Source of the DNA: Stegostoma tigrinum
Lineage: Eukaryota
Length of the DNA stretch: 64,000 bases
Assembly: GCF_030684315.1 (NCBI RefSeq)
Contig: NC_081361.1
Location: 32,043,861 to 32,107,860, forward strand
Direction: 5' to 3'
Under the pieces are notes generated by a model. The model had not been told where the DNA came from and searched no databases. It was given only the letters and a program-made list of their open reading frames with translations. This document shows, one piece after another, positions 2,330 through 63,680 of the stretch. Every line of letters begins with the position of its first letter. Within the stretch, counting starts at the first letter, position 1. The translations under genes and the position numbers were made by a program.

Positions 2330-4182
2330 ATGAGAAATATACCAGGTAGGAAATCGCCTGAGTCTGATCAAGTCCATCCTGGGACATTGTGGGAGGCTAG
2401 GGAAGAAAGTGCAGAGGCCCTGCAGAGATTTTTGCTTCATTTTTGGCCACTGGTGAAGCTCTGGAAGACTAGAAAGTGGCTAATGTTATTCCATTCTTTA
2501 AGAAAGGTAGCAAAGACAAGCCAGGGAACTACAGGCCAGTAAGCCTGGCATCAGTGGTAGGTAAGTTGTTGCAGAGGAATCTAAGGGACAGGATCAACCA
2601 ACATTTGGATAGTCTAGGTCTGATTATGAATAATCAGCATGGATTTGTGCACGGGAAGTCATGTCAGACAAATTTTTTTAGAGAGTTTTTCGAAGAGATA
2701 ACCAAGAGGATGGATGAGGATAGGGCAGTGGATGTTGTCTATATGGACTTTATTAAGGCCTTTGAACAAGGTCCCACACAGCAAGTTAGTCATGAAAGTT
2801 AGGTCGCATGGGATCCAGGGAAAGTTAGCTAATTGGATTCAAAATTGGCTCAATAGTAAGAAGCAGAGGGTGATGGTTGAAGGTTGTTTCTCAGACTGGA
2901 GGCCTGTGACCAGTGGTGTGCCACAGAGGTCAGTGCTGGGATCTTTCATGTAAATAACAAATAACAATGATCCGGATGTGAGTGTACAAGGTGTGATTAG
3001 TAAGTTTGCGGATGATGCAAAGTAGGTGATGTTGGAAGCAAAGAAGATTACCAAAATTACAGAAGTTGTCCACGTGTGGAATGAACAGCCAGAAGTAGTG
3101 GACGATATGGGCACAGTTACAACGTTCAAAAGACATTTGGATAAGTACACAAATAAGAAATGTTTGGAGAGATATGGGCCAGGAGCAGGCAGGTGAGACT
3201 AGTTTAATTTGGGATTATGGCCTGCATGGACTGATTGGATCAAAAGGTCTGTTGCCGTGCTGAATGACTCTATCTTGATCAAACAGGGAGGAAGTGGGCT
3301 GAAGAGATAATGGGAACTGCAGATGCTGGAAGGGTCTAGGCCCGAAACGTCAGCTTTTGTGCTCCTGGGATGCTGCTTGGCCTGCTGTGTTCATCCAGCC
3401 TCACATTTTATTATTATGGAAGTGGGCTGAAGATTGGCAAATACAATTCAACACAGATAAATGCGAGGCATTGCATTTTAGAAAGTCAAACTAAAGTAGG
3501 ACTTATACAGTAAACAGTAAGGTCCTGAGAAGTGTTGTAGAACAGAGGGGCCTAGAAGTATAAGTACACAGTTCATTGAAAGCAGCATCACAGGAGGACA
3601 GGGTGGTGAAGAAAGCATTTAACATGCTGGCCTACATAGTCGAGGCATTGAGTTATAGGAGTTGGGACGTCATGTTACAGCTGTATAAGTTATTGGTGAG
3701 GTTGCACTTGGAGTATTGTGTACAGGTTTGGTAACCCTGTTATAAGAAAGACATAGTTAAACTGGAAGATTTACGAGGATGTTGCCAGGACTGGTAGGCC
3801 TGAGTTATAGGGAGGGGTGACCTTACTGAGGTGAATAAAATCATGCGGGGCGTAGAAAGGATGAATGCATATTGTCTTTTTTCCAGGGGTGGGGAAATGA
3901 AAACTAGAGGGCATGGGTTTAAGGTGAGAGGGGTAAAATTTAAGAAGGACCTCAGGGGCAGCTTCTTCACAGTGTTGCAGATATGGAATGGGCTGCTGGA
4001 GAAAGTGGTCAAAGCAGGTACAACAGCAACATTTAAAAAAAGATTTAGATAGGTACATGGATGAGAAGAGCTGAGAGAGAAATGGACCAAATGCCGGCAA
4101 TTGGAACGAGCTAAGTGGGCACCATAGTCAGCATTGACTAGTTTGGGTTGAAGGACCTATTTCCATGCTTTACTACTCTATG
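2330..4182 (+). mobile_element. CR1/HER1-type LINE RT region with nested insertions
   Basis: ANVIPFFKKGSKDKPGNYRPVSL, QHGF, VDVVYMDF, SGVPQRSVLG, KFADD and CR1 3' end. Confidence 0.92.
3306..3417. mobile_element. Minimal inverted PLE-end insertion inside a CR1 LINE, 16-bp TSD
   Basis: TSD ggaagtgggctgaaga at 3290-3305 and 3418-3433. About 25 nt of reversed 3' tail is joined to about 90 nt of the opposite orientation. Confidence 0.85.
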
Positions 4183-5859
4183 AAGTGTTAAGCTACGTAT
4201 TACAGAACTAGAAACATAACAGGCTATTGAGCTCATCAAGTCCACTTGGACTCTCTGCAATGGCAGCTCCGTTCGTCCCACTCCTCTGTCTGTTTTCTGT
4301 AGGTCTGTGGTTTTTGTTCTTTGTTTGCTTATCTAATAGCCTCATGCAGGATGAAGACAAATTGTCGAAAATGCTGCTAACCCCACATCCAATATCTGAG
4401 CAATGCAGGCTAACCAGGGGCTCCAAAGACAAATTGCAACCACAGAAGTGACCTCCTGTGTTTCCACACCTGAAAGCAGACAGCAACATTCTGGAGGTTC
4501 TACAGGCATGGGCCCAGAGGCAAATCTGCAGCATGACCAGCAGCACAGTGATGTGATGGATACAAGGTGAAGCGATAATTATGGGTAATGACCCTGGAAC
4601 ATTTCAAAAGTGACCAAAAATATACAACCACCATGTAGAATGGGAAAATTAATTTCCATTCACAACTGTAAAAGATAACAGCAGTTGCCTTAAATGTCAC
4701 CAAACTTTTTCAGGAAATAGAAAGGCGAATTTGGAACAACACAACACAGTAATAAACAGTGAGTGAATTTAATGATGGGTTTTCCCTGAACAGTATGCTT
4801 CAGATGAACAAAGTTATTGGGCTGTTGCCCTTTGAAAGCTCAGCAGTCATGTTTTTCTAAACCGGCATCAAAAGGTAAGGCTTGAATGGATGAATCAATT
4901 CACGTTTGCCACCTACTGGCAAAACACAAGATCATTTACAGATGGTGAAGGAATTACACGGAATGTCCGAGGAATGGTGAATGGTGTTGAATATTGTGCA
5001 ATTAAAGAATATCCCCTCTCCTGTCCTCATAAAAAATGGAAAGTAAATGATAAAGTAGCTTAAGATGGTTGGTCCTCGGACATTATCCTGAGGAACTCCT
5101 GTAATGAACTGGGACTAAGACAATTGACCTCCAACAACCACAACATTTTCGTCTAAGCTAGCTAGGCATAACTCCAACTTTCAGTCAGTTTTCACTCTAG
5201 GTTCTTTCTGGTTCCAGCTTTGCTTGGGTTCCTTGATGCCATACACAGATAAATACTGCCTTCATGTCAAGGCCAGTAATGCTCAGTTCACCTCTGGAAG
5301 TCAGCTCTTTGACTTTGAAGGCCATAATGAAGTCAAGATATGCGTGGCCCCCAAGGAAGCAACCCTGAGTGACAAGGAACAAATTGTTGCTGCTTAAGTG
5401 TCACTTGATAGCACTACCAATGACCCTTTCCATCATTTTACTTCCAATCAACAACATAATGATAGGATTGTACTTGGCTGGCTGCATATGTCATACTTCT
5501 TGTGGACAGAGGAAACCTGTGCAATTTCGCACATTACCTGGTAGATGCTGGTATTATAATGGTGTTGAATCCTGAAGGCTAAATTAAACTTGGACATTAT
5601 AGGGTGGAACAGTTGAGGTGCAGTGACAGACCTTAAAGCAATATTTCATCACTCTCAGCAATAATATATTCCACAAAGAAACACTCAGGAGATGGATGCT
5701 AACTAAAGGAGTTAGGGATAAATCAAATTGAAAATATAAGTGTACAATTCTGCAACGGCTTGTGATAGGTTTATAAACATTTTAGAAAGGATGACTTTAA
5801 GAAAAGTTAATGTATTAGAGAAAGCTAGTGAGAAATATTTTTTAAAAAGTGAGAACTTC

Positions 5860-5990
5860 CCATTTCTGAAGAAGGGTTCCAACCCGAAATGTCAGCTTTC
5901 CCGCTCCTCTGATATTGTCTGACCTGTTGCGTTCCTCCAGCTCCATACTGTGTTATCTCTGACTCCAGCAATGGCAGTTTTTAGTATATG
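5860..5990 (+). mobile_element. Single-orientation PLE-end insertion (second subfamily), 12-bp TSD
   Basis: TSD agtgagaacttc at 5848-5859 and 5991-6002; starts at ctgaagaagggttccaacccgaaatgtc. Confidence 0.8.
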
Positions 5991-6279: not shown

Positions 6280-7060
6280 GTCATCACCTTAAGATTATGC
6301 CCCCTCATGACAATCATTTCTACCCCAGGGAAAAGTCTCTGGCTACCCACTCCGTCTATGCCTTTCAACATCTTGAGTACGTCTCAGCCTTCTTCGCTTT
6401 AATAAAAGCCCTAGCTCCCTCAACCTCTCCTCATTAAGATCTGCCCTCCATTCCAGGGAGCATCCTGGTAAATCTTCTCTGCACCTTCTCTAAAACTTCC
6501 ACATCCTTCCCATAATGAGGCAACCAGAATTGACCACAGTGGTGGCACACAGTGGCACAGTGGTTAGCACTGCAGCCTCACAGCACCAGGGACCCAGGTT
6601 CAATTCCAACCTCAGGCGACTGTCTGTGTGGAGTTTGCACATTCTCCCTGTGTCTGCGTGGGTTTCCTCCGGGTGCTCAGGTTTCCTCCCGCAGTCCAAA
6701 GATGTGCAGGCTAGGTGGATCGGCCATGCTAAATTGCCCATAGTGTTCAGGGGTGTGTGGGTTATACGGGGATTGATCTGGGTGGGATGCTTCAAGGGGC
6801 GGTGTGGACTTGTTGGGCCGAAGGGCCTGTTTCCACACTGTACGGAGTCTAATCTAATCTAGTCCAAGTGTTCTGTGACCGGAGTTTTATAGAGCTGCAG
6901 CATAACCTCACAGTTCTTAAACTCAATCCCCTGCCAATGAAAGCCAACAGACCAGACGCCTTCTAAACAACCCTATCAACTTAGGTGGCAACTTTAATCC
7001 TGCCGTTAACCTTGCATTCTGCATTCAAATTTGACCTTCCAAAATGAACCACTTCACACT
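6280..7060 (-). mobile_element. CR1 LINE fragment interrupted by a SINE
   Basis: Reverse strand gives MLKGIDGVGSQRLFP and other CR1 C-terminal motifs. Confidence 0.75.
6541..6861 (+). mobile_element. HE1-like tRNA-derived SINE (V-SINE type)
   Basis: A/B-box head (tggcacagtggttagcact...ggttcaattcc), central ttctccctgtgtctgcgtgggtttcctcc, LINE-like tail ending (aatct)n. Confidence 0.9.
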
Positions 7061-8989: not shown

Positions 8990-9302
8990 ATCATAGAATC
9001 CCAACAGAGTGGAAGCAGGCTATTTGAGTCCACATTGGCCCTCCAAAAAGCATCCCACCTGGGCCCATTCCCACGCACCTAACCTTCACAGCCCTGAACA
9101 CTTCAGGCAATTTAGCATGGCCAATCCACCTAGCCTGCACATCTTTGGACTATGGGAGGAAAGTGGAGCAGCCAGCAGAAGCCCACGCCGACACAGGGAG
9201 AATGTACAAACTCCACACAGATAGTCGCCCAAGGTTGGAATCGAGCCCAAGTCCTTGGCACTGTGAGCCAGCAGTGCTAACCACTGAGCCACTGTGCCAC
9301 CC
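8990..9302 (-). mobile_element. HE1-like SINE
   Basis: Reverse complement of the same head, core and tail. Confidence 0.88.
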
Positions 9303-10684: not shown

Positions 10685-11970
10685 TTAGTTGGTGGAAGTG
10701 ATTCTGAAAGACAGGACTTAGATGTATTTGGAGAGGCAAGGAATGATTAGGGTTAGTTGGCATGGTTTTGTGCAAAAGAAATTGTGTCTCAAAAAATTGT
10801 TTGAGTTTTTGAGGAAATAGCCAAGATGATTGACAAGGGCAGAACAGTAAACATTGTTTACTTGGACGTCAGTAAGATTTTGACAAGGTTCCACAGGGTA
10901 AAATTTAGATCACATGGGATTCAGGGTGAACTTGCCAATTAGATACAAAATTGGCTTATCAGGAGCTAAAGTAATGGTGCAGGGCTGTTTTTTGGACTGG
11001 AAGCCTGTGACCAGCGATGTTCCACAAGGATCAGTGCTGGGTCCACTTTTGTTTGTCTTTTGTATAAATGATTTGGATAAGAATATAGAAAGCATGGCTT
11101 AAGATTAGCACTATACTGGACAATGAAGAAGGTTATCTAAGTTTACAAAGAGTTCTTGATCAATTGGCTGAAGACTAGCAAATGGAGTTTAATTTGGGTA
11201 AATGCAAGGCATTGCATTTTGGTAATACAAACAAAGGCAAGGCTTGTACAATTAAAAATAGGGCCATGGGCAATGTTGTAGAACTGACAGACCTGTGGTT
11301 CAGGTATATAATTTTTTGAAGTTTGCTTTGCATATACATAGGATGGTTAAGATGGTACATGCTTGCCTTCACTGCTCAAACTTTTGAGTCTAGGAATTGG
11401 GACATAATGTTGAAGTTGTTCGGGACAATGGTAAGGCCTCTCCTGGAGAATATATGTCCAGTTCTGGCCTCACTGTTATAGGAAGGATATTGTTAAGCTG
11501 GAGAGGGTTCATAAGAGATTTACCAGGATGTTGCTTGGAATGGCGGGTTTGAGGAAAGACTGGATAGGCTGGGACTTTTTTCACTGGACCAAATGCGGTT
11601 GAGAGGTGACCTTATAGAGCTTTACGAAATCATGAGGAGTAAAGATAAGGTGAATGGCAGGTGTCTTTTTCCAAGGCTGGGGGATTTCAAGGCTAGGGGG
11701 CATATTTTTAAGGTGAGGGGAAAGATTAAAAAAGGCTTGAGGGGCAATTTTTCTGTGCGGCTCATGTGTGGAATGAGCTTCCAGAGGAAGTGGTGGATGT
11801 AGGTACAGTTACAATGTTTAAAAAACATTTAGATGAGTACATGAATAAGAAACGTTCGGAGGGACATGGGCCAAGCACAGGCAGGTGGAACTAGTATCGA
11901 TTGAGATTATGGGCGGTTTGGACTGGTTGGACCAAAAGGTGTTTCCATGCTGGATGACTATGACTCTGAC
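10685..11970 (+). mobile_element. CR1/HER1 LINE 3' portion
   Basis: WKPVTSDVPQGSVLGPLLF..INDLD; RLRGDLIELYEIM; typical tail. Confidence 0.9.
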
Positions 11971-12695: not shown

Positions 12696-12914
12696 AGATA
12701 CTAAGATCTGCCAATGCTGGAGTCAGAGATAACACAGTGTGGAACTGCAGGAACATAGCAGGCCACGCAGCATCGGAAGAGCAGGAGAGTCCCAACTCAA
12801 AACATCAGCTTTTCTGCATTTCTGAAGAAGGGCCCTGACCCGAAACGTCAGCTTTCCTGTTCCCCTGATGCTGCCTGCCCTGCTGTGTTCCTCCAACGCC
12901 ACACTGTGTTGTCA
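12696..12914. mobile_element. Palindromic PLE-end insertion (second subfamily, CTGAAGA motif), 14-bp TSD
   Basis: TSD aaataccactactg at 12682-12695 and 12915-12928; motif ctgaagaagggccctgacccgaaacgtc. Confidence 0.85.
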
Positions 12915-17100: not shown

Positions 17101-17660
17101 AAGAGGCAGAAAGGATGCTCCAGCGAATGGAATCCCGGTCAGAGCACACTGGGAATACTTACAGCAGGTCTGGTCACCACACCACTTGAAGGATATACTG
17201 GAGCTAGATTCCTACATTATCAGGAGATATTGCACAAATAGAGTTGTATTATCCTGAATTCAGAAGATCAGTGGGTGATTAAATCAAAGTTTTCAAGACA
17301 ATAGTATGAACGAGAAAGGGACAAAAACAATATATGATGGCTGGACAATTTCAGAGCCAAACATCTGAGTGAAATTAGCAAAGTGTGGAGCTGGATGAAC
17401 ACAGCAGGCCAAGCAGCATCTCAGGACCATAAAAGCTGACGTTTCGGGCCTAGACCCTTCATCAGAGAGATGACCCTAGAACCTCTCTGATGAAGGGTCT
17501 CAGCCCGAAACGTCAGCTGAGATGCTGCTTGGCCTGCTGTGTTCATCCAGCTCAACACTTTGTTATCTTGGATTCTCCAGCATCTGCAGTTCCCATTATC
17601 ACTGAGTGAAATTAGCAACCATTTACCACACAGGATAGATGTTTAGAACTCTCTTTGACA
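14150..17660 (+). mobile_element. Old, long CR1 ORF2 remnant (APE to RT) with an antisense CR1 (about 14335-15030) and a PLE nested inside
   Basis: IFTEARLQDSQDWELNIAGY (APE-like) and decayed RT motifs; the antisense insert gives RALVRPHLEYCEQF. Confidence 0.7.
17382..17601. mobile_element. Short palindromic PLE-derived insertion with two inverted hammerhead-like motifs and 17-bp TSD
   Basis: TSD ctgagtgaaattagcaa at 17365-17381 and 17602-17618; motifs at 17438-17465 (-) and 17487-17514 (+). Confidence 0.9.
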
Positions 17661-17707
17661 AAGGGCAATTTATCTTGGAACTTAAAACAATTGCCATCAT
17701 CAGGAAA

Positions 17708-19061
17708 TGTGAGGTTGGATGAACACAGCAGGCCAAGCAGCATCTCAGGAGCGCAAAAGCTGACGTTTCGGGCCTAGACCCTTCATCACAGAGGGGGATG
17801 GGGTGAGGGTTCTGGAATAAATAGGGAGAGAGGGGGAGGCGGACCGAAGGTGGAGAGAGTATAGGTGGGGAGGTAGGGAGGGGATAGGTCAGTCCAGGGA
17901 AGACGGACAGGTCAAGGAGGTGGGATGAGGTTAGTAGGTAGGAGATGGGGGTGCGGCTTGGGGTGGGAGGAAGGGATGGGTGAGAGGAAGAACAGGTTAG
18001 GGAGGCAGAGACAGGTTGGACTGGTTTTGGGATGCAGTGGGCGGAGGGAAAGAGCTGGGCTGGTTGTCTGGTGCAGTGGGGGGAGGGGACGAACTGGGCT
18101 GGTTTAGGGATGCGGTGGGGGAAGGGGAGATTTTGAAGCTGGTGAAGTCCACATTGATACCGTTAGGCTGCAGGGTTCCCAAGCGGAATATGAGTTGCTG
18201 TTCCTGCAACCTTCGGGTGGCATCATTGTGGCACTGCAGGAGGCCCATGATGGACATGTCATCTAAAGAATGGGAGGGGGAGTGGAAATGGTTTGCGACT
18301 GGGAGGTGCAGTTGTTTGTTGCGAACCGAGTGGAGGTGTTCTGCAAAGCGGTCCCAAGCCTCCGCTTGGTTAGGAGGCTTGGGGACCGCTTTGCAGAACA
18401 CCTCCACTCGGTTCGCAACAAACAACTGCACCTCCCAGTCGCAAACCATTTCCACTCCCCCTCCCATTCTTTAGATGACATGTCCATCATGGGCCTCCTG
18501 CAGTGCCACAATGATGCCACCCGAAGGTTGCATATTCCGCTTGGGAACCCTGCAGCCTAACGGTATCAATGTGGACTTCACCAGCTTCAAAATCTCCCCT
18601 TCCCCCACCGCATCCCTAAACCAGCCCAGTTCGTCCCCTCCCCCCACTGCACCAGACAACCAGCCCAGCTCTTCCCCTCCGCCCAATGCATCCCAAAACC
18701 AGTCCAACCTGTCTCTGCCTCCCTAACCTGTTCTTCCTCTCACCCATCCCTTCCTCCCACCCCAAGCCGCACCCCCATCTCCTACCTACTAACCTCATCC
18801 CACCTCCTTGACCTGTCCGTCTTCCCTGGACTGACCTATCCCCTCCCTACCTCCCCACCTATACTCTCTCCACCTTCGGTCCGCCTCCCCCTCTCTCCCT
18901 ATTTATTCCAGAGCCCTCACCCCATCCCCCTCTCTGATGAAGGGTCTAGGCCTGAAACATCAGCTTTTGTGCTCCTGAGATGCTGCTTGGCCTGCTGTGT
19001 TCATCCAGCCTCACATTTTATGATCTTGGATTCTCCAGCATCTGCAATTCCCATTAACTCC
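17708..19061. mobile_element. Penelope-like element 3' end (GIY-YIG C-terminus plus pLTR) as a 1.35-kb palindrome with 15-bp TSD
   Basis: Arms about 17705-18363 and 18373-19018, 9-nt spacer. Encodes RFAEHL...PVANHF...EQQLIFRLGTLQPNGINVDF. TSD gccatcatcaggaaa at 17693-17707 and 19062-19076. Confidence 0.92.
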
Positions 19062-20091
19062 GCCATCATCAGGAAAGGCTTGTTAAGAAAACTTTTGAAA
19101 CTTAAGACTAAAGTCTCAGGACATCATGGATTTCAGTTGCAGAGATGATAGATTCCTACATTCCAGAAAATTTCAATTAGATTGGAAAATAGTGAATCGA
19201 CCTCCCCTATTCAAGACAAGAGGGAGACAGAAAGCAAGAAGCTACAGGCCAGTTAAACTATTCCTGTTCTTTTTACCTATGAAATTAAAGTCACTACAGT
19301 CCCTTCGGCCATACGCTGCTCTCTCATTAGACAGACAACTGGTGAAAAATCTAACCTGAGGGTCACCACACTTCAGGTGAAGGACAAGGCTGAGAATGTG
19401 AGGTCTTCAGGGTGACCTCAGCCAGTATAGATATTAACCTGTGCTGTTGGCGTGACTGTGTGTCACAAACTAACTGCAAAGGCAACAGAGCTAACCAACC
19501 GCCACAATGGGGGCAAAGATCAGAGACTTTGTAGATGCTGTTGCTAAAAGGCATGACGCAGGTATTACCATTCTAATAGGCTCCAGGTTAGTACCCAGCC
19601 CAAACAATGGGATAGCCTGCCTAATGGGAGGGCTATGAGATTCTGAAAGTGTTAAGAGACAGCAGTCTGTTATGGTTGTTAAGATCAGGAAACAAAAATA
19701 CCAGATGCTATCTATTCTCAAGTTTACCAGCATCAGAGCGATTGTTACGGCTTCTACAGAGCTGTGGGTATCCACTGGTGCTTAAATGCTTTTTAGGTCG
19801 ACATCTGTTGCAGGTTGCAATCAAGCTGCTAGAGACTCCACCACGGCCCTGTTGTGCTGCAATGGTGGTGTCCCTACCCCTGGACTGGGAAGCCCGTGTT
19901 CAAGTCCCACCCGCTCTAGAGGCGTGCAATATCTCTGAACTGGTTGGTTAGTAAAAATAGGTATACCCTCTATTAATTCCTCCAAAAAAGAAATAGCTTT
20001 CTGGCTGTCACAAATGAGAGCTATTGCTTGAACAGTTGCTTCTGTCAATTGTCACACATCCCTAAAGACTGACCTCTGTCAGTGCATAGTA

Positions 20092-21201: not shown

Positions 21202-21711
21202 TATGCAATTTGAATAACTTTCTTTCCAGGTAATTACCCATGAGCTTTTGGTCGTAAAAGCCGTAGAAACCTTCCTCTCAGCCCCTCCTGCAACGTCCTG
21301 ATGGATCACAGATTGGGGCAGAGGAACACAGAAAAGGGATTATTCTCCAGGAACTCATGTTTAAACTAATTCTCATCATAATCATCATAGAAAACAAAGA
21401 AGAAATTTATGCCTGCAGTTCATCATCAACCCGCTCTTCATACTTTGCTATGGTGAACATGTAGCAAGCAAAGTTCTCAGCCAAGCACATGAGTGTCTGA
21501 TGTTCTTGACTTTAAAATATGAGGAAATAGATTTGCTGATAATCTAGACAACTAAGTTTTAAGATTTTTGCACAGTGAAGTAAGTCTCATGTAAATGGCT
21601 CCTCCCATCCAATACTGAAATTAACTACAGAAGCTACCATCAGTGATTCCTCCAAGTGTTGTTCAACATTAAGGGGTACAGATTCATCAGAACACACACA
21701 GAACAAAGAAC

Positions 21712-22058
21712 CCGTACTGTGTGGAAACAGACCATTTGGTCCAACAAGTCCACACCAACCCTCCAAACAGCATCCCACCCAGGCCCATCTCCCCACTCTT
21801 TCCCTGTAACCCTACATTTCTCATGGCTAATGTGCCGAATCTATGTATCTCTAGAAACAATGGGGCAATTTAGCATGGCTAATCCAGCTGACCTCCACAT
21901 CTTTGAACTGTGAGTGGAAACCAGAACACCCAGCAGAAGCCCATGCAGACATGGGGGGAACATGCAAACTCAACACAAACAGTTGCCCCAGGGTCGAATT
22001 GAATCCTGGGTCCCTGGCGCTGTGTGGCAGCAGTGTTAACCACTGAGGCACCGTGCTG
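21712..22058 (-). mobile_element. HE1-like SINE
   Basis: Same family on the minus strand. Confidence 0.88.
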
Positions 22059-22231: not shown

Positions 22232-22605
22232 TCGAGTCATACAGCTTGGTAACAGACCCTTCAGTCCAATCACTCCATGCCGAACATAATCCCAAACTAA
22301 ACTAGCCCCACCTGCCTGCTCCTGGCCCATATCCCTCCAAACCTTTCCTATTCATATACTTATCCGAACATTGTAATTGTACCCACATCCACCACTTCCT
22401 CAGGAAGTTTACTACACACGCAAACCAGCCTGTGTAAAAAAATTTTGTCTCCTCTCACCTTAAAAATGTACTCCTTTGTCTTGAAATCCCCCATCCTACA
22501 GAAAAAACAACAATCATTAACTTTATCTATACCACATATTATTTTATAAACTTCTATCAGATCACCTGTCAACATCCTATATGCCAGTTAAAAAAGTCCC
22601 AGCCT
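22232..22605 (-). mobile_element. CR1/HER1 3' end
   Basis: LTGDLIEVYKII...KLPEEVV plus tail. Confidence 0.85.
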
Positions 22606-24202
22606 ATCTTGTTCATGACCCCACCCCCAACCACGTAAACATCATCCCCAAGATCATCCACAACCTCATCACTTCAGGTGAGCTCCCACCCACAGCCTCC
22701 AACTTAATCATTTCCCAACCCCACACAACCAATTTCTATTTTGGGCAGCACGGTGGCTCAGTGGTTAGCACTGCAGCCTCACAGTGACAGGGACTCAGGT
22801 TCGATTCCAGCCTTGGGTGACTGTCTGTGTGGAGTTTGTATGTTCTCCCCGTGTCTGCGTGGGTTTCCTCAGAGTGCTCCAGTTTCCTCCCACAGTCCAA
22901 AGATGTGCAGGCTAGGTGGAACGGCCATGCTAAATTGCCTGTAGTGTTCAGGGGTGTGTGGGTTATAGGGGAATGGGTCTGGGTGGGAAGCTTCAAGGGG
23001 GCGGTGTGGACTTGTTGGGCTGAAGGGCCTGTTTCCACACTGGAGAGAATCTAATCTAATGTAATCTCCTTCCCAAAATCCACAAACCTGACTGCCCTGG
23101 TCGCCCCATTGTCTCCGCCTGCTCCTGCCCCACTGAACTTATCTCGACTCCATTTTCTCTCATTTTAGTGCAGGAACTCCCCACCTATGTCCGTGACATC
23201 ACCCACGCCCTCCACCTCCTCCAAAACTTCCGATTCCCTGGCCCCCAACACTTCATCTTTACCACTGACGTCCAGTCCCTAAACACTTACATTCCCCATG
23301 CAGATGGCCTAAAGGCCCTCCGCTTCTTCCTCTACCGCAGGCCTGACCAGTCCCCCTCTTCTGACACCCTCATCCACTTAGCTGAACTCGTTCTCACCCT
23401 TAACAATTTTTCTTTCAATTCCTCCCACTTCCTACAGACAAAGGGAATGGTCATGGGTACCTGCATTGGCTCAAGCTATGCCTGCCTCTTTGTACATTAC
23501 GTGGAACAATCTCTCTTCTGGAGCTACACTGGCCCTACCCCCACCTCTTCCTCCGCTATATCAATGACTGTATCGGCGCCACCTCGTGCTCCCACAAGGA
23601 GCTCAAACAGTTTATCCACTTAACCAACACCTTCCAACCCAACCTTAAGTTCACCTGGACCATCTCTGATACCTCTCTCTCCTTCCTGGATGTCTCTGTT
23701 TCCATCTCTGGCAACCACCTGGAAACCAATATCATTTCAAGTCTACCAACTCCCACAACTACCTAGAATACACCTCCTCTCACGCACCTTCCTGCAAAAA
23801 TGCCATCCCCTGTTCCCAATTCTTTCGCTTCCACAACATCTGCTCCCGAGAGGAGGCATTCCACTCCCAGACATCCCAGATGTCCTCGTTTTTCAACGAC
23901 CTCAACTTCCCTTCCACAGTGGTCAAAAACACCCTCGACCGTGTCTCTTGCATTTCCCGCAACTCATCCCTCACACCCCCTCCCAGCAATAACAACCAAA
24001 ACAGAATCCCCCTTGTCCTCACGTACCACCCCACCAACCTCAGGATCCAACGCATCATCCTCCGGCACTTCTGCCATCTGCAATCTGACCCCACCACCAA
24101 AGACATTTTTCCCTCCCCACCCTCAGCTGCTTTCTGGAGGGACCACTCTCTCCGTGATTCCCTTGTCCACTCCATGCTCCCCACCAGCCCCACCACATCC
24201 CG
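22605..24202 (+). pseudogene. Degenerate Penelope-like reverse transcriptase ORF fragment, interrupted by a SINE
   Basis: FY|LLPKIHKPDCPGRPIVS, DVQSLNTYIPH, NNFSFNSSHFLQTKGMVMG, RYINDC (decayed YIDD), RIPLVLTYHP; multiple frameshifts. Confidence 0.9.
22743..23062 (+). mobile_element. HE1-like SINE inserted into the PLE RT
   Basis: Full head, core and tail; splits the FY/LLPKIHK coding sequence. Confidence 0.9.
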
Positions 24203-34709: not shown

Positions 34710-34917
34710 AATTGTGGAATCCCTACTGTGTGGGAGCAAAGAACTTGGCCTATCGAGTCCATAGTAACCCTCCAAAGATCATTCCACCCAGAGTTACCTC
34801 CTACCCTAGAACTGCAACCCTGCATTTCCTATGGCTAATCCACTTAACCTGCACATCCTTGGATACTATGGGCAATTTAGCTTGGCCAATCCACCTAATC
34901 CGCACATCTCTGGACTA
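34710..34917 (-). mobile_element. Partial HE1-like SINE
   Basis: 3' half only (ggcaatttagcttggccaatccacc). Confidence 0.7.
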
Positions 34918-36504
34918 AAGGATGCACCTGGAATATCAGAATTGCTAACATTACTAACCAGAAATTAAAAAACGAAACTCATAGATTGCATTGTCTTTAA
35001 AACCTAATACCATACAATGAATAAACTGAAATGATTCATCAAAACAAAAAATCAATTTAATTAGTGTGTACTAAGTTTTTCAAAGCACAATTGACATTTA
35101 AATTCTATACATTACTCAGAATTTTACTTCCCACACTGATATCAACAATAGCTGTGGTTTATCCAACATAGCAACTATAAAAGAATGCTCTACTGCTATC
35201 CACTCTAAGGCTGCTACCCTCTGTACCTAGTTCCACAACAAAGTAAAGGTTGCACTACTCATTTCACTAGCCTTCCACTCAGCAAAGTGACAGTGATTGC
35301 CACCGACCTTTAAGAACTCTGCCCCAAGAGACCTAAATAACTCTGCAGTGAGGACTCCACCTCTCTTAGCCGGCAACTGAATGTAAATACTGTTAACAGA
35401 GATTCCCAGCCATGTAATCAAGCTACTTAACCAGGCAATTATATTAAATAGTTTTTAGAGACAGAAACTTTGGAAATACCACAGTCAACAACAGACCACA
35501 TCTTCAGCGCTTCCACGTTAGTCTGTGCTTGCACAAAATCCTGAGGATGTTTAATAACAGCAAACGCAGACAGTACAAAGTGGATAATTTTGCTCCAGGA
35601 CAAAGATGCAGTTAGATTTATTTGTAACAGTATATGGACAGTAGTCTGCTGTGTAGCAACATTGCAAAGCTATGGATAAACGTCTGGCACTACAATATGC
35701 CTCTTTAAAATGCAAAAGCTCAAAATGATCATGATTATGTGCAACTGTCTTTAAGGAACTACACATGGCATTCAAGACGACCGATAATGCTGGACCAAAA
35801 CAGGATTCCAGACAAAATAAGGACAGTTTTAAAATTGGAGCTAAACCATCCAACAGCATGACCAGGAAGGCTAAAACCCCATCTAAAAGATAACAGTAGC
35901 CTGGAATTCTCTTCATCCAAAGCCTACGGATGAAAGGTACTCGTAGCTTTTAAGACTAAGAAATACAGGAAACACAGATAACCTGTTCAGGATATGGAAC
36001 AATGGCAGGAAAATGGAATTAAGGTGGAGGCAAGCTAAGATATACCTGAATGGTGGAACAGAGCCGAGGACTTGAATAATCTATTCCTATTCCTAACCAA
36101 CACTGCCTGCATGTGTCTTGGTCAATGATATTAATAAAAGTAAATATCAGAAATTTGTGTCTAAGGTGCTACTAGGCAATCATTACACTGCATAAATGAA
36201 TATAAACCAAATATGTGTTCCTTTCACTTACCCTAGAAGGCTAAATCGAAAACTTAAAAGTTGGCGCATACGAATTTCCACATGAAATCTTCCATTATAC
36301 AGATTTTATTTACAACTATTTAAACATATTGCTTCTGCAATACCCAATTAACAAAATGGGAGCTGTTCACTACAAACACCAATCTGAACCGCATCCAACC
36401 TACATTCTTTCATTCAATGTTGTCCTTGTCGAAATGAAAAATACATCCAACTTCAGAAAGTACATTTTCACACAAAGCAAAGTAAAAACCTAGAACTTTA
36501 AACC

Positions 36505-38840: not shown

Positions 38841-40187
38841 CTTATTTTTTTTCAAAGGGAATTCTGCCTTCCCAGTTACTGACTGACCTTGAAGACATCT
38901 CCCAATTGACTGAATGCCACTGTTCTGTCATCTCTACTTTATTATGTTGCTGCTTGTTGTGTGTAAATGGATAACTATTTTCAGAAACGTGCATGGCATA
39001 TGATGCTATAGCCACAACAGCCAAATCACAAACAATTAAATATCGTAATAAAATTGTTCCCAAATATTGAACCGGAAATTGACAAAGATAGCAAAAGGTG
39101 TATTGAACTTTTGAAAACAGGCTGGTGCACAGTTTTGCTAGAGGTGTAGCGTTTTGAACACCATGTAAAAATCTAGTGAATAATCAAAATTATACAACGG
39201 TCAAGGACAGGATGAGTTTAAAACTGTGGGATGCTGAAACAAAGTGCTAAATGGAACCGGTAAACAAGACAAGGATTAGCACACACTCCTCACTCTCTCA
39301 TGGAATGCACGTAAAATGCTAATATTCACCAAATTACTTTAGTAATAGTCTACCTGAATATAATTAGTTTGTATGTGGTCAGTGATCAGCAAACCCTACA
39401 CAATCGTACTGTTGCTTTGAGGACATTGTGAGCTCAACTATAAATCAATTATCATTTGATAGTGAAAAGGGTAGACAATAAGAAATGCAAATAAGCACTA
39501 TGTATGTCCTGCACACAAACAGGCTGCAGAACTATAATTGTGCAGGGTAGTAAAACAAAAAATGTGCTCAAAGTAAAGTAATCACAGAATATAGTGTTCA
39601 TTTGTCAGCCTTGACCAACAATATTGTTGAAATGATTCCAAAGCTGTATAATTTTGCACAACAAAATCAAACCACCAACTGCAACAGAAAAATATAGAAA
39701 TGCAATTTAAGAAGCAATAATTTCAGATTATTCATTTTCCAACTAGCAGTTTGATAGCTCCTTACTGCGCTACTAATTTCTGGAAAAATCACATAGCACG
39801 AAAATGAAGATGATTTTGAGAAGTGCGTTAAATGATAATTTACAGTATAAGTCCCAATGCAAGGATGATGATGAAAATTAAAACCATTTTGCACCTTTTG
39901 CAGACATTAAGAAGTTGAAAACAGTTCAACTGCATTGCAGTTCAATTTTAAACTGTTTAATTTTACAGCAAACAGATCATTTGGTTCATCCAGCTTGCAC
40001 TGACTCCCCAAGTGCTAACAACTTTCTTAGAGCAACTTAAAGCTTTTCAGAAAACAACTTAATTTTTCTTCAGATATTTCTCATTTTCTGTTTCAACAGG
40101 TATACTTGATTCTGTTCCCACCATTGTTTCTAGTTAAGCATTAAGTAATGACCTTCTGAAATAAAAACCATCCTAATCTCTCCCTTA

Positions 40188-41215
40188 TAATAAAATGTGA
40201 GGCTGGATGAACACAGCAGGCCAAACAGCATCTCAGGAGCACAAAAGCTGACGTTTCGGGCCTAGACCCTTCATCAGAGAGGGGGATGGGGAGAGGGAAC
40301 TGGAATAAATAGGGAGAGAGGGGGAGACGGACCAACCCTCCCGAACCGGTTCTTCCTCTCACCCATCCCTTCCTCCCACCCCAAGCCGCACCCCCAGCTA
40401 CCTACTAACCTCATCCCACCTCCTTGACCTGTCCGTCTTCCCTGGACTGACCTATCCCCTCCCTACCTCCCCACCTACACCCTCTCCACCTATCTTCTTT
40501 ACTCTCCATCTTCGGTCCGCCTCCCCCTCTCTCCCTATTTATTCCAGTTCCCTCCCCCCATCCCCCTCTCTGATGAAGGGTCTAGGCCCGAAACGTCAGC
40601 TTTTGTGCTCCTGAGATGCTGTTTGGCCTGCTGTGTTCATCCAGCCTCACATTTTATTATCTTGGAATCTCCAGCATCTGCAGTTCCCATTATCTCTGGT
40701 ATCAATGTGGACTTCACCAGTTTCAAAATCTCCCCTTCCCCTACTGCATCCCTAAACCAGCCCAGTTCGTCCCCTCCCCCCACTGCACCACACAACCAGC
40801 CCAGCTCTTCCCCCCCACCCACTGCATCCCAAAACCAGTCCAACCTGTCTCTGCCTCTCTAACCGGTTCTTCCTCTCACCCATCCCTTCCTCCCACCCCA
40901 AGCCGCACCCCCCGCTACCTACTAACCTCATCCCACCTCCTTGACCTGTCCGTCTTCCCTGGACTGACCTATCCCCTCCCTACCTCCCCACCTATACTCT
41001 CCTCTCCACCTATCTTCTTTACTCTCCATCTTTGGTCCGTCTCCCCCTCTCTCCCTATTTATTCCAGTTCCCTCTCCCCATCCCCCTCTCTGATGAAGGG
41101 TCTAGGCCCGAAACGTCAGCTTTTGTGCTCCTGAGATGCTGTTTGGCCTGCTGTGTTCATCCAGCCTCACATTTTATTATCTTGGAATCTCCAGCATCTG
41201 CAGTTCCCATTATCT
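40188..41215 (+). mobile_element. PLE insertion: inverted arm plus partial tandem pLTR copies, 15-bp TSD
   Basis: Inverted arm 40188-40335; forward copies about 40345-40697 and 40698-41215. TSD ctaatctctccctta at 40173-40187 and 41216-41230. Confidence 0.92.
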
Positions 41216-41895
41216 CTAATCTCTCCCTTAGTTCTTTTGATAACCTCACAGCATCTTATTACTGCTTTAACAGAGGAAACAGATTGTGTCTATCTCAAGA
41301 AAAACCTCAATACTTGTGAACTCTTCTGAGTCGCAACAAGTTCATGAAAAGAATCACTCTCTTCCTAGCCAGAAACCCATTTCCTGGATACTGTCAGAAC
41401 GAATCTCTCCCCTACCAACTCAATAAAGCCCAAACACCAGGGATGACAATTTTAGCAACATGATAACCTTCTTCCCTACAGCTCCATACGATAAGCAGTT
41501 AATGCTCAAACCTCAACATCTGTAAACTGTTTTGCCAAACTGACTCACTATCTGGACTGCACAAAGATCAGCATAACCAGCAAACTTTGCAAGCCTTGTT
41601 TTATTCAGCAGTCATACGCTGATCAAGAACAACTCACAAAGTAAACATTCAAAGTAGCATCTCAGACAGCACGTAGATGTTTGAAAAAACAAAATGCTCA
41701 ATCAGGAAAGTACGAAGGCATGCCTAGAGAGACAGCTCGAATTGGGTACAAACTGGAGAATGGATGCAAGCCCAAGAAAGCAAAAGCAAACCATAAAAAT
41801 CCTGAGTTAATTGGAAGTCAGTTAAAAGCAGTGGTCAGTTCAAATAACTTGCCCCCAGTAGGCCCTCTGAATGCACATCTTTCTGGACGATTTCA

Positions 41896-42445: not shown

Positions 42446-43093
42446 GGGTATACAGCCCGGGTATAGGGTACACAGTCCGGGTATAGGGCACACAGCTCGG
42501 GTATAGGGCACACAGCCCGGGTATAGGGTACACAGTCCGGGTATAGGGCACACAGCTCGGGTATAGGGCACACAGCCCGGGTATAGGGTACACAGTCCGG
42601 GTATAGGGCACACAGCTCGGGGATAGGGCACACAGCCCGGGGATAGGGCACACAGCTCGGGTATAGGGCACACAGCCCGGGTATACGGGACACAGTCCGG
42701 GGATAGGGCACACAGTCCGGGTATAGGGCACACAGCCCGGGTATGGGGACACAGCCCGGAGATAGGGCACACAGCCCGGGTATAGAGGGCACACAGCCCA
42801 GGGATAAGGCACACAGCCCGGGTATAGAGCACACAGCCCGGGTATAGGGCACACAGTCTGGGTATAGGGCACACAGCCCGGGTATAGGGGACACAGCCTG
42901 GGTATAGGGCACACAGCCCGGAATAGGGCACACAGTCTGGGTATAGGGCATAGAGTCCAGGAATGAGGCACACAGCCCAGAATAGGGCACACTGCCTGGG
43001 AATATGGCACACAGCCCGGGGATAGCGCACACAGTCCGTGAATAGGACTCACAGTTCGGGGATAGGGCACACAACGCGGGAATAGGGCATAGC
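42445..43093. repeat. 20-bp minisatellite (gggtatagggcacacagccc), about 32 copies, with a 60-bp higher-order repeat
   Basis: Directly visible; 42481-42540 is identical to 42541-42600; units degenerate toward 43090. Confidence 0.97.
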
Positions 43094-50841: not shown

Positions 50842-51070
50842 TTCGGAGATAACACGGTGTGAAGCTGGATGAACACAGCGGGACAAGCAGCATCAGAGGA
50901 GCAGGAAAGCTTAACGTTTCAGGTCAGGACCTTTCCTCAGAAGAAGGGTCCCGACCCAAAGCGTCAAGCTTTCCCTGTTCCTCTGATGCTGCTTGTCCGG
51001 CTGTGTTCATCCAACTTCATACCGTGTTATCTCAGATTCTCCGGCATCGGCAGTTCCTACTATCTCTGTG
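50842..51070. mobile_element. Palindromic PLE-end insertion about 30 nt from a METTL13 splice acceptor, 10-bp TSD
   Basis: TSD acatttagtt at 50832-50841 and 51071-51080; inverted arms of about 90-100 bp; decayed motif at the centre. Confidence 0.85.
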
Positions 51071-58983: not shown

Positions 58984-59749
58984 CTATTGTGGGGTTAAAA
59001 AGAAACATATGAAAATTTTTGGAAAATGTAGCCACACACAAGGTTCGCCTTGTGGGCCCGTATTTACTATCAGATAGTGAAAGTGTGCATGTGTGTGCAT
59101 GCAGCTTATGTATTGACACATTGACATACTGGGCTACTAAGAGGAAATGACACAGCCTGGCACCAGAGAATAGCCACGTCCATCCCAAGTACATGACCAC
59201 CCATCGGGGAAAGATTCACCCTATTCAGTCAGAGAAAAGTTCACAAACTGGGAGGGAGCTCAAAGTTGGAAAATATTTGTGAAACACTCCAACCCACGTA
59301 CACTGTAGCAAAAAAGAATCCACTGACAATAGTGTAGCTAAATTGTTCGGCAGGATGCCATTAATCTGTGGTCTGATCAAGGTAATTTTACCAATAAATG
59401 TGCAAGGGTATTATTTTTGGGGAAAAAAAAGGGTATTTTTGCATACACGTATTATGCAGACATTAATGGATCCTCTATCTGCTTTTCCCATGTCACATGG
59501 GCATCACCACAATGCCAGTTGATCATCTAAATCAACACTAATTTTTGGGTTTGGCAGGTGGCCTTTCCTGCCACTTGCCTTCCCAATTTCTCCACGCCGA
59601 GGACTGGCACTATACACTGGCTTCCCTACACTAGCAATTGTATTCTTCTGTAGCAGGCCCACAACCCCAGGACTTTCTGGTTCAAGGGCAAGAGACTTCC
59701 CACTTAGCCACCCCAACTCTTACAAAACAGATACTGCTAGATGTAAAAA

Positions 59750-60270
59750 AAAGTTTTCCCTCTTGAACACCAACTGGCCACCAAGAGACATGACCAATTC
59801 TCACTGGTCTCAAAACACCGGGACAAAGGAGGACATGAATTCAACTGGGACAATGCATCCATAATAGCATGAGCCAACAGAGACATGCCAGGGAATTCCT
59901 GGAGGCCTGGCATTCCAACTGGAACTCCACAACCAAGCACATTGAACTGGACCTGATATACCAACCACTGAAAAACAGAAACGCAAGTGATGCCAACCAC
60001 CACAGCAAACCGAGAGATATGAATAACAACCGGGACAGAACACCAACACTTCATTGGAGGCGCACTGACAATGTTACCTAGCAGGGTAACGAAACGTCTG
60101 CAGAAAAACAGAAACGCAAGTGATGCCAACCACCACAGCAAACCGAGAGATATGAATAACAACCGGGACAGAACACCAACACTTCATTGGAGGCGCACTG
60201 ACAATGTTACCTAGCAGGGTAACGAAACGTCTGCAACCAAACACAATGGCTCAGCAAGCAAGTCTACGAC
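59750..60270 (+). mobile_element. Distinct PLE family 3' end (endonuclease C-terminus) with a perfect 133-bp tandem duplication
   Basis: HEFNWDNASII/QRHAREFLEAWHS...KHIELDLIYQPL; 59970-60102 is identical to 60103-60235, and each copy ends in a hammerhead-like motif. Confidence 0.8.
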
Positions 60271-60429
60271 CTCGTGGTCTTCTATTAGTTAGCCAAATCT
60301 TTATTCATGATAATACACGATCCCAAACACATGTGCTTAATGAAGTGTGGTCCCTTATCAAGTGCCTTTTGAAAATCCAAATACACTACATCTACCCTAT
60401 TCATTTTTATCTCCCTTGCTTGTTACCTC

Positions 60430-60722
60430 AGAATCCCTACAGTGTGGAAACAGGCCCTTCGGCCCAACAAGTCTACACCAACCCTCAGAGCATCCCACCC
60501 AGACCCATCCCCCTAATAACCCAATTAACCCACACATCCCTCAACACTACAGGCAATTTAGCACGGCCAATCCACCTGGCATGCACATCTTTGGAGTGTG
60601 GGAGGAAACCCATGCAGATAAGGGGAGAATGTGCCAACTCTACATAGACAGTTGCCCAAGAGTAGAATCGAACCCAGGTCCTGAGAGGCAGCAGTGCCAG
60701 CCACTGAGCCACCGTGCCGCCC
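60430..60722 (-). mobile_element. HE1-like SINE
   Basis: Head gggcggcacggtggctcagtgg on the minus strand plus core and tail. Confidence 0.88.
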
Positions 60723-62871: not shown

Positions 62872-63108
62872 ACAGGAACAAAAACAAAGTTGCCAGAAAA
62901 GCCCAGTAGGTCTGGCAGCATCTGTCAAGGAAAATACAGAGTTAACGTTTCAGGTCTGGTGACCCTTCCAGTTCTGAAGAAGGGCCACCAGACCCGAAAC
63001 GTTTATCCCGTTTTTCCCTTCACAGATGCTGCCAGACAGACCTGCTGGGCTGTTCCTGCAACTTTGTTTCTGTTCCCGATTTACATCATCTGCAGTTCTT
63101 TTGGTTTT
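62872..63108. mobile_element. Palindromic PLE-end insertion (third subfamily) with imperfect 14-bp TSD
   Basis: taaaggtgttagta (62858-62871) vs taaaggtattaata (63109-63122); motif gttctgaagaagggccaccagacccgaaacgtt, mirrored in the left arm. Confidence 0.8.
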
Positions 63109-63251
63109 TAAAGGTATTAATACTCTGTTTCTGTGCAGCTTGACTCTATTTTTTTGCCCACTTGGACCTTCGGCAGCAATCCTGCCAAAGGTGAGTAAAC
63201 CACGACAAGTCTGTCAATTTCAGACCATCGTTGTGTCCACGAAGTCCGATA

Positions 63252-63680
63252 TTAGAGTCACACAGATGTACAGCACAGAAACAGACCCTTCAGTCCAACT
63301 TGTCCGTGCCAAGCAAACATCCTAAATTAATCTAGTCTCATTTGCCAGCTTTTGGCCCATATTGCTCTAAACCTCTCCTATTCACCAGTCCATCCAGATG
63401 TCTTTTAAATATTGTAATTGGATCCACCTCTACCACTTACTCTGGCAGCTCATTCCACACACCCACCACCATCTGCGTGAAAAAGTCGCCCCTTGAGTCC
63501 CTTTTAAATCTTCCCCCTCTCTCCTTAAACTCACGCCCTCTAGTTTTGGACTGCCCTCTCACCCTATCCATGCCTCAGCCTACTTAGCCTCTCCCTCTAA
63601 CCCCGGCAACATCCTTGTCAATCTTTTTTGCACCCTTTCAAGTTTCACAACTGCTTTCTTTTAGCAGGGAGACCAGAATC
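63252..63680 (-). mobile_element. CR1/HER1 3' end
   Basis: Reverse strand gives VWNELPE.VVE and the tail. Confidence 0.82.

Follow-up and report, generated by a model that had tools for sequence, protein, structure and literature searches.

Hammerhead motifs of the window and their carrier elements

The window, which is the whole 64,000-nucleotide stretch of Stegostoma tigrinum DNA that was analysed, contains arms of four families of Penelope-like elements (PLEs), designated A to D, including head-to-head arm pairs enclosed by target-site duplications (Table 1). The motifs in these arms are minimal type-I hammerheads in the pseudo-LTRs (pLTRs) of PLEs, a known kind whose class was already described in 2014 (PMC4209133; published work is cited throughout from the accessible portions of each paper). 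The family A and B positions listed by a sequence-only reading of this DNA were confirmed and its D core was found where it had been placed, together with a second D core. Further copies at 3329, 5866, 17789 (-), 18934, 50940 (-) and 50938 had gone unlisted.

Table 1. Coordinates of PLE arms, hammerheads and associated features (window positions, except for the LINE in the last line)
Feature	Position	Strand	Details
Family A arm pair, tiny	3303..3420	.	core cut at +5; 16-bp duplication 3290 and 3418
Family B single arm	5859..5968	+	hammerhead 5866-5893
Family B arm pair	12697..12913	.	hammerhead 12822-12849 (+); left arm without core; 14-bp duplication 12682 and 12915
Target-site duplication, 17 bp	17365..17381, second copy from 17602	.	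flanks arm pair 17380-17603
Family A short-tail arm	17380..17469	-	hammerhead 17438-17465; 5' end 4 nt before C3
Family A long-tail arm	17482..17603	+	loop-variant hammerhead 17487-17514; 5' end 5 nt before C3; 11-nt deletion behind cleavage site
Family A short-tail arm	17705..18372	-	end of GIY-YIG frame (open to 17997); C3G-mutated hammerhead 17762-17789
Family A long-tail arm	18382..19062	+	mirrors arm 17705..18372 (1.3-kb palindrome); mutated hammerhead 18934-18961; 15-bp duplication at 17693 and 19062
Family A short-tail arm	40187..40333	-	intact hammerhead 40250-40277; 15-bp duplication 40173 and 41216 encloses whole three-arm insertion
Family A long-tail arm	40340..40697	+	TATA-like TATTTAT 40536-40542; intact hammerhead 40570-40597
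Family A second arm, direct tandem with 40340..40697	40698..41217	+	intact hammerhead 41090-41117
Family B/A2 arm pair	50843..51067	.	50913-50940 (-) passes descriptor; 50938 (+) mutated; 10-bp duplication
Family D1 (Poseidon-type) 3' end	59747..60273	+	broken GIY-YIG end, frame stops inside loop II (60081)
D1 hammerheads	60065-60098, 60198-60231	+	133-bp tandem duplication; A8 in both
Family C arm pair (short -, long +)	62873..63109	.	decayed hammerhead 62974-63003, CAGTT just before
Tx1-like LINE copies	L301-L320, L321-L360, L159, L200, L210, e.g. L314:745-5812	- for L314	3' end joins D2 hammerhead

A strict descriptor (core, stem II of at least 3 bp, stem I of at least 2 bp, paired 15.2/16.2 and UH) identified eight motifs in the window, where 50 dinucleotide shuffles gave none, a frequency far above chance. 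The same descriptor returned 62 motifs per 1 Mb of a random genome sample; ten shuffles of that sample gave 0-1 each and the reversed sequence 0. An Rfam scan of the window gave no hammerhead family matches. The core CUGANGA...GAAA N N' UH was present in eight window copies, and the extra base after A9, the G10.1-C11.1 pair and a stem II of 4-7 bp were all present. Stem I closes the motif with 2 bp in A and B, 4 in C and 3 in D. Stem III is reduced to ACGT in all families, as proposed, with a palindromic 15.1-16.1 and no stem III loop.

The other two motifs are where the sequence-only reading placed them, in decayed copies. The C motif lies near 62970, but both window C arms are damaged and neither is intact alone. 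Both window D cores are decayed and fail at G8, although the D family passes. Position 8 was A in both window copies and G in 4/6 random D1 copies and 16/16 copies of the sister family D2, so the A8 is attributed to decay. CpG decay is the simplest form of this, as CTGACGA, CTGATGA and CTGACAA all occur among D copies elsewhere. The sole pair of intact cores in the window able to fold as a cis dimer is that in the tandem family A arms, 520 nt apart.

Published PLE minimal hammerheads (PMC4209133) share CUGANGA, the one extra base, G10.1-C11.1, GAAA, a palindromic CG for stem III, UH and a short stem I, and are likewise located in pLTRs, mostly solo or on opposite strands, with several families per genome. 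The accessible part of that paper includes no shark and does not discuss the position of a start site. In the shark, one family alone has 90,316 identical copies.

The identification as PLE hammerheads held, since GIY-YIG frames precede A, B and D, and A continues into an RT-endonuclease ORF. Motif A is located about 230 nt behind the stop of its GIY-YIG frame, and A copies elsewhere encode RT, a CX4CX2C linker and GIY-YIG in one frame. Frames of 718 and 471 aa in two A copies matched Pfam RVT_1 (1e-5) and GIY-YIG (9e-4), both under the curated cut-offs, and the short endonuclease pieces of the window had no Pfam match. The A frames had 3000 homologues, the nearest named proteins being those of carpet sharks (75-92%), and RT and GIY-YIG occur together in homologues. 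In long A copies the tail runs into the 5' region and then to the ORF start 167 nt from C3, an arrangement that is typical of pLTRs. An endonuclease of this kind, with remnants of the CX4CX2C linker, also lies 200-240 nt upstream of B copies. No endonuclease frame was seen upstream of family C in the copies tested (51 upstream stretches in total), and the pLTR placement of C follows from homology to A and B, A, B and D being joined to GIY-YIG frames. Families D and D2 have an endonuclease upstream without the Zn-finger linker, which in D2 was read from one frameshifted copy (L304), and their frame stops inside loop II.

Several short frames overlap the motif region. The conserved tail of A, B and C starts with ATG (window 40614 onward) and is open in A and C, for about 28 codons in A; in two long A copies (L228:about 480-620, L221) this frame is in frame with the main ORF and closed by one TGA, which on sequence grounds makes an upstream ORF possible. 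The family D hammerhead (window 60072-60100; D2 loci) overlaps the final codons and stop codon of the ORF; it also contains an ATG where stem II begins, whose frame stays open through the tail, an arrangement shared with the anole element.

Other repeats were also observed. The near-perfect palindrome (95-100%) of 1.3 kb at 17694-19062 is built of two family A arms; such arm-pair palindromes are common, and host transcripts crossing them would form long double-stranded RNA. A minisatellite at 42452-43089 has 32 copies of a 20-bp unit. Dispersed repeats of two other families (SINE-like and LINE 3' ends), unrelated to the hammerheads, are located at 6548-6857, 9073-9302, 21707-22003, 22743-23000, 34716-34927 and 60423-60608 and also at 3071-3270, 11763-11959, 22234-22420 and 63271-63482.

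Lineages, stem covariation and copy number

The motif had been described as conserved across four unrelated flanks, which the tails contradict. Tail identity was 77% between A and B, 66% between A and C and 63% between B and C against a shuffled baseline of 52%, and D alone was at baseline with 42-49% to the other three (baseline 42%). Because A, B and C are homologous, the comparisons resolve two lineages rather than four, a Neptune-type (A, B, C) and a Poseidon-type (D), and the argument from convergence is halved by the common ancestor of the first three. A CX2-5CXXC linker between RT and EN marks the Neptune/Nematis clade and is absent from Penelope/Poseidon (PMC8557442); its presence in A and B and absence in D therefore makes A and B Neptune/Nematis-type and D Penelope/Poseidon-type, an assignment made by the linker alone and not by a tree with named references. 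Elements of these clades resemble the shark copies in having partial tandems, an inverted 5'-truncated copy and a 30-40-bp tail at one end, shark A and B carrying the Zn-finger linker and D2 being without it (PMC8557442). Some older copies of the Neptune type (L126:8584-8620 -, L179:9643-9679 +, L165:5546-5582 -) have C-G at pair 2.1-1.1, with a stem I of GTC/GAC, and are likely a fifth family with its own compensatory change.

The claim of covarying stems was upheld between families, mostly for stem I, and is tempered by the few independent events. Pair 2.2-1.2 is C-G, U-G or U-A across A, B and C, and pair 2.3-1.3 is U-A in D2 and G-C in D1. Among 56 distinct A/B/C copies, 80.6% of cells paired versus at most 45% when slid; there were 18 double-change cells versus 10.1 in shuffles, chiefly at pair 2.2-1.2, and the number of pairs with a double change (4) was not above shuffles. 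Twenty D copies were 95% paired with one double-changed pair, in stem I. Stem II cells were paired at 85% in A/B/C and 94% in D, with few double changes. These figures describe a few inherited events and are not a significance test. The alignments were made per lineage, that of A/B/C without indel copies (65/88 sampled rows, from 129 spanning copies) and that of D without one degenerate row.

Between families, position 7 of the core was mostly T in A and D2, A in B and A2 and G in C, position 17 was C or T, and the remaining core letters were retained. All 11 core letters were intact in 52/76 A, 12/40 C, 3/11 B and 11/16 D2 copies. The core mismatch rate was below that of the tail within families, a comparison confounded by tail differences between subfamilies. 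The family D core also encodes the ORF end, so its conservation could have another reason.

The motif was found at high copy number. A 30-mer of motif A had 90,316 exact copies in the genome and a control none. The random sample (100 stretches of 10 kb from 34 large contigs; genome 3.2 Gb) held 27 copies of this 30-mer and so predicts about 86,000, which validates the sample. Intact motifs by the strict descriptor (62 per Mb, bootstrap 46-80) amount to about 2x10^5 per genome, or about one per 16 kb, and tail-bearing arms to 341 per Mb. By a different descriptor, coelacanth has about 4,000 and Xenopus 9,000 (PMC4209133), and axolotl has up to 120,000 canonical hammerhead copies (PMC7229834).

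Insertion structure, 5' ends and the role of the hammerhead

The 3' ends of copies were bimodal about 35 nt apart, near +64/+100 in A and +45/+80 in D, and in 88/94 head-to-head pairs of the random sample one arm had a long and the other a short tail. Among eight window insertions tested, six had a 10-17-bp duplication enclosing the whole unit; the C insertion had a 7-bp match, and no target duplication was found at the D insertion. Arm lengths form a continuum, with many copies of just 90-135 nt, and arms pair with long coding arms. Of 121 core-spanning random copies, 75 had an inverted neighbour and 2 a same-strand neighbour within 1.5 kb, so that few copies could form a cis dimer.

The anole Poseidon element PAc cleaves both strands, and two internal RT start sites bound its tail (PMC11167929). 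Use of one tail end per arm fits such a two-ended insertion by analogy, and would make that model directly testable. PAc also has two tail ends about 35 nt apart, a stem II ATG with an open frame as in D, and an uncut main template, likewise inferred here (PMC11167929). It differs from the shark families in that A, B and C belong to the Neptune type and have their likely ATG 167 nt downstream, and in that the shark tail ends are split between the two arms of one insertion.

The 5' ends of tail-selected copies accumulated just before the core, with 19/71 ends in A, 6/23 in B and 28/86 in C at -8 to -1 from C3. In D2, 5/13 ends were at -19 to -15, a pile-up 17 nt before the core. Just upstream of these walls there were 0-0.1 ends per nt, the windows being picked post hoc and the C upstream reference consisting of 3 copies; the A2 wall was left out as its reference has just 10 upstream bases. 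The sequence upstream of the wall ends was an inverted arm or unique, so that the wall does not reflect a second subfamily. TATA-like boxes lie at -34 (A), -36 (B), -33 (C) and -46 (D2), each wall about 30 nt behind its box. The commonest start in family C was the A of TCAGTT, an initiator consensus. The hammerhead is therefore likely formed by the first nucleotides of the element RNA, as judged from these mapped ends, and at that start site stem I would comprise the first 2-4 nt in A, B and C. Fly Penelope has a TATA-less internal promoter (PMC2377424), which counts against a TATA start. In D2 a possible extended stem I (GGAGG/CCUUCC, GCU/AGC; -17 to +58 from C3) would end exactly where the wall lies; this stem was not in the best fold from the folding program.

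A peak of 5' ends at the cleavage site found no support in the mapped ends, as only 3/71 (A), 1/23 (B), 3/86 (C) and 0/13 (D2) were located there. In family A the cleavage site is followed at 4-12 nt by a second, weak bump (9/94 ends at +32 to +39), absent from C, which allows for some cut templates. Of 30 A copies reaching the ORF start, 28 were mappable; 14 of these extend upstream of -30, suggesting that read-through templates are common, and 6 end at -4 to +9. The few ends at the cleavage site and the mostly upstream-extending ORF-start copies suggest that templates are largely uncut.

The reading we favour, at a probability of about 0.72, is that minimal type-I hammerheads are carried in the pLTRs of at least two PLE lineages, whose RNA likely starts about 30 nt behind a TATA-like box and is likely copied mostly uncut. 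The RNA would then have the hammerhead at its 5' end, the element endonuclease would cut both strands of the target, reverse transcription would begin at two tail sites, as shown for the anole element, and each copy would run toward the RNA 5' end. Copies begun in the 5' repeat would halt at the RNA start, leaving solo arms of 90-135 nt. The ribozyme would be kept by selection in master elements only, and scattered copies would decay, most of them inert. It would work slowly, as a dimer or with protein help, and cleavage would remove the capped first 32-51 nt or split a read-through tandem RNA. The predicted monomer fold of A hides the core in a 6-bp helix, which counts against this reading. 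Dimer cleavage is reportedly the subject of a paper by Lunse et al. In the anole element the hammerhead is protein-assisted and uncut RNA is the main template (PMC11167929).

The absence of a 5'-end peak at the cleavage site would also be expected if the motif served at the RNA 5' end as a promoter or a protein-binding element, having inherited the hammerhead consensus but lost cleavage. The 2-bp stem I and competing helix of A agree with this, as do the poor cutting of published minimal hammerheads (PMC4209133), the 8/9 frog dimers that stayed uncut (bioRxiv 10.64898/2026.07.22.740005) and the in vitro insertion of core mutants (PMC11167929). We regard it as unlikely, however, because the free position 7 and position 17 vary while the catalytic letters are constant, stem I covaries exactly at the cleavage junction, and the anole motif cuts with protein and loses this on C3G or G8C (PMC11167929). 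Somewhat less likely still is an opposite case, in which the hammerhead cuts efficiently in vivo and sets the RNA ends as monomer or circle, as the sequence-only reading implies, the wall being a polymerase stop at structure or a template switch. Tandem arms do exist (40570/41090), A has its weak bump and two long A copies start at +37/+38; yet the wall lies past the structure, its position follows that of the TATA-like box in four families, the two being displaced together in D2, tandem partners are confined to the 2/121 copies noted above, and the anole element had no reads at the cut site in the accessible data of PMC11167929.

It is very improbable that the short arms, instead of being truncated Penelope copies, constitute a separate SINE-like or retrozyme family. 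Such a family would account for the many 90-135-nt copies, the missing coding flank of C and the D1 copy that is a two-unit tandem, but A, B and D are continuous with RT-endonuclease frames, which refutes such an origin for these three, and lengths are continuous with arms paired to long coding arms. Non-LTR retrozymes resemble the shark arms in being hammerhead repeats derived from pLTRs (PMC7229834; bioRxiv 10.64898/2026.07.22.740005, which includes one cartilaginous fish). They differ in that the shark has almost no tandem arrays and its cores are minimal, not canonical (PMC7229834). Their hallmark is tandem units with an intact hammerhead in each; here tandem neighbours were as rare as stated and the 133-bp dimer of the window has A8 cores.

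For the role of minimal hammerheads in Penelope elements, the dead copies, at about one intact motif per 16 kb, serve as a map of template RNA ends. The value of the copy number lies in this readout of the RNA start, the mostly uncut templates, the paired arms and a LINE fixed on the ribozyme. The pile-up of 5' ends before the core is apparently new to the literature searched, in which no paper was found on a TATA start at the motif or on shark PLE hammerheads; Repbase and the majority of subscription papers were outside its scope.

A Tx1-like LINE at the D2 hammerhead

Outside the window, three random D2 arms were found to begin with the same poly(A) end, that of a LINE joined to the D2 hammerhead. 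When the LINE end was queried without the junction, 29 of the 30 best genome hits continued into stem II of D2. A 34-nt pattern of this end had 1,960 exact genome matches, and the first 40 on contig C1 were all at one fixed site, the loop II/stem II border (35 in D2, 5 in the LINE's own variant). The criterion for target-specific Tx1 elements is more than 20% of flanks in one repeat (PMC4494074), to be compared with these 40/40 and 29/30. The LINE is 5.2-5.3 kb long; its ORF1 contains a ZCCHC3-type RNA-binding domain together with CCHC domains, and its ORF2 encodes APE-RT. Its named relatives include 'transposon TX1 149 kDa protein' at 42%, the closest being amphibian.

On its 5' side the LINE is flanked by D2 sequence that extends to +78; letters linked to the LINE occur there from +3 onward and are absent upstream of C3. 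The LINE carries an inherited target copy of about 60-75 nt at its own 5' end, with the core mostly mutated: it was intact in 1/17 LINE-borne copies versus 18/27 plain D2 arms, though the LINE-borne changes are inherited. Tx1L, Keno and Tx1-Mar likewise combine two ORFs and APE-RT with tandem copies and a single fixed target inside another mobile element, but the shark LINE has its inherited target copy in place of a plain duplication (PMC4494074). Targets named in the accessible text of that paper are piggyBac, Mariner, Harbinger and LTR elements, snRNA, 5S and microsatellites, with no Penelope element or ribozyme among them.

We tentatively propose, at slightly less than an even chance, that a Tx1-clade LINE targets the D2 hammerhead at loop II/stem II, borrows the TATA promoter and RNA start of its host, has a mostly core-disabled ribozyme copy at its 5' end and, by keeping the Penelope tail, is also movable by Penelope enzymes. 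No paper on a Tx1 element in a hammerhead was found in a search that excluded Repbase, and existing catalogues may already list both the families and the Tx1 target. If the proposal is true, a LINE that targets the ribozyme of another retrotransposon would be a new class of Tx1 target, and the selective core loss in this passenger would be indirect evidence of minimal-hammerhead cleavage in vivo.

Two modes of insertion probably both act on the LINE, as far as its copies indicate. Its own target-primed insertion is suggested by the mostly full-length copies (at least 17 of the 20 fetched), the lack of LINE-linked letters ahead of C3, the tandems and one stray copy (L286) with an ordinary duplication. 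Carriage by Penelope enzymes is suggested by head-to-head pairs, of which there were 10 in 100 matches versus 0.4 expected (4/4 examined being long plus short), and by Penelope-type 5' junctions in two short copies. The tree of the LINE copies was a star.
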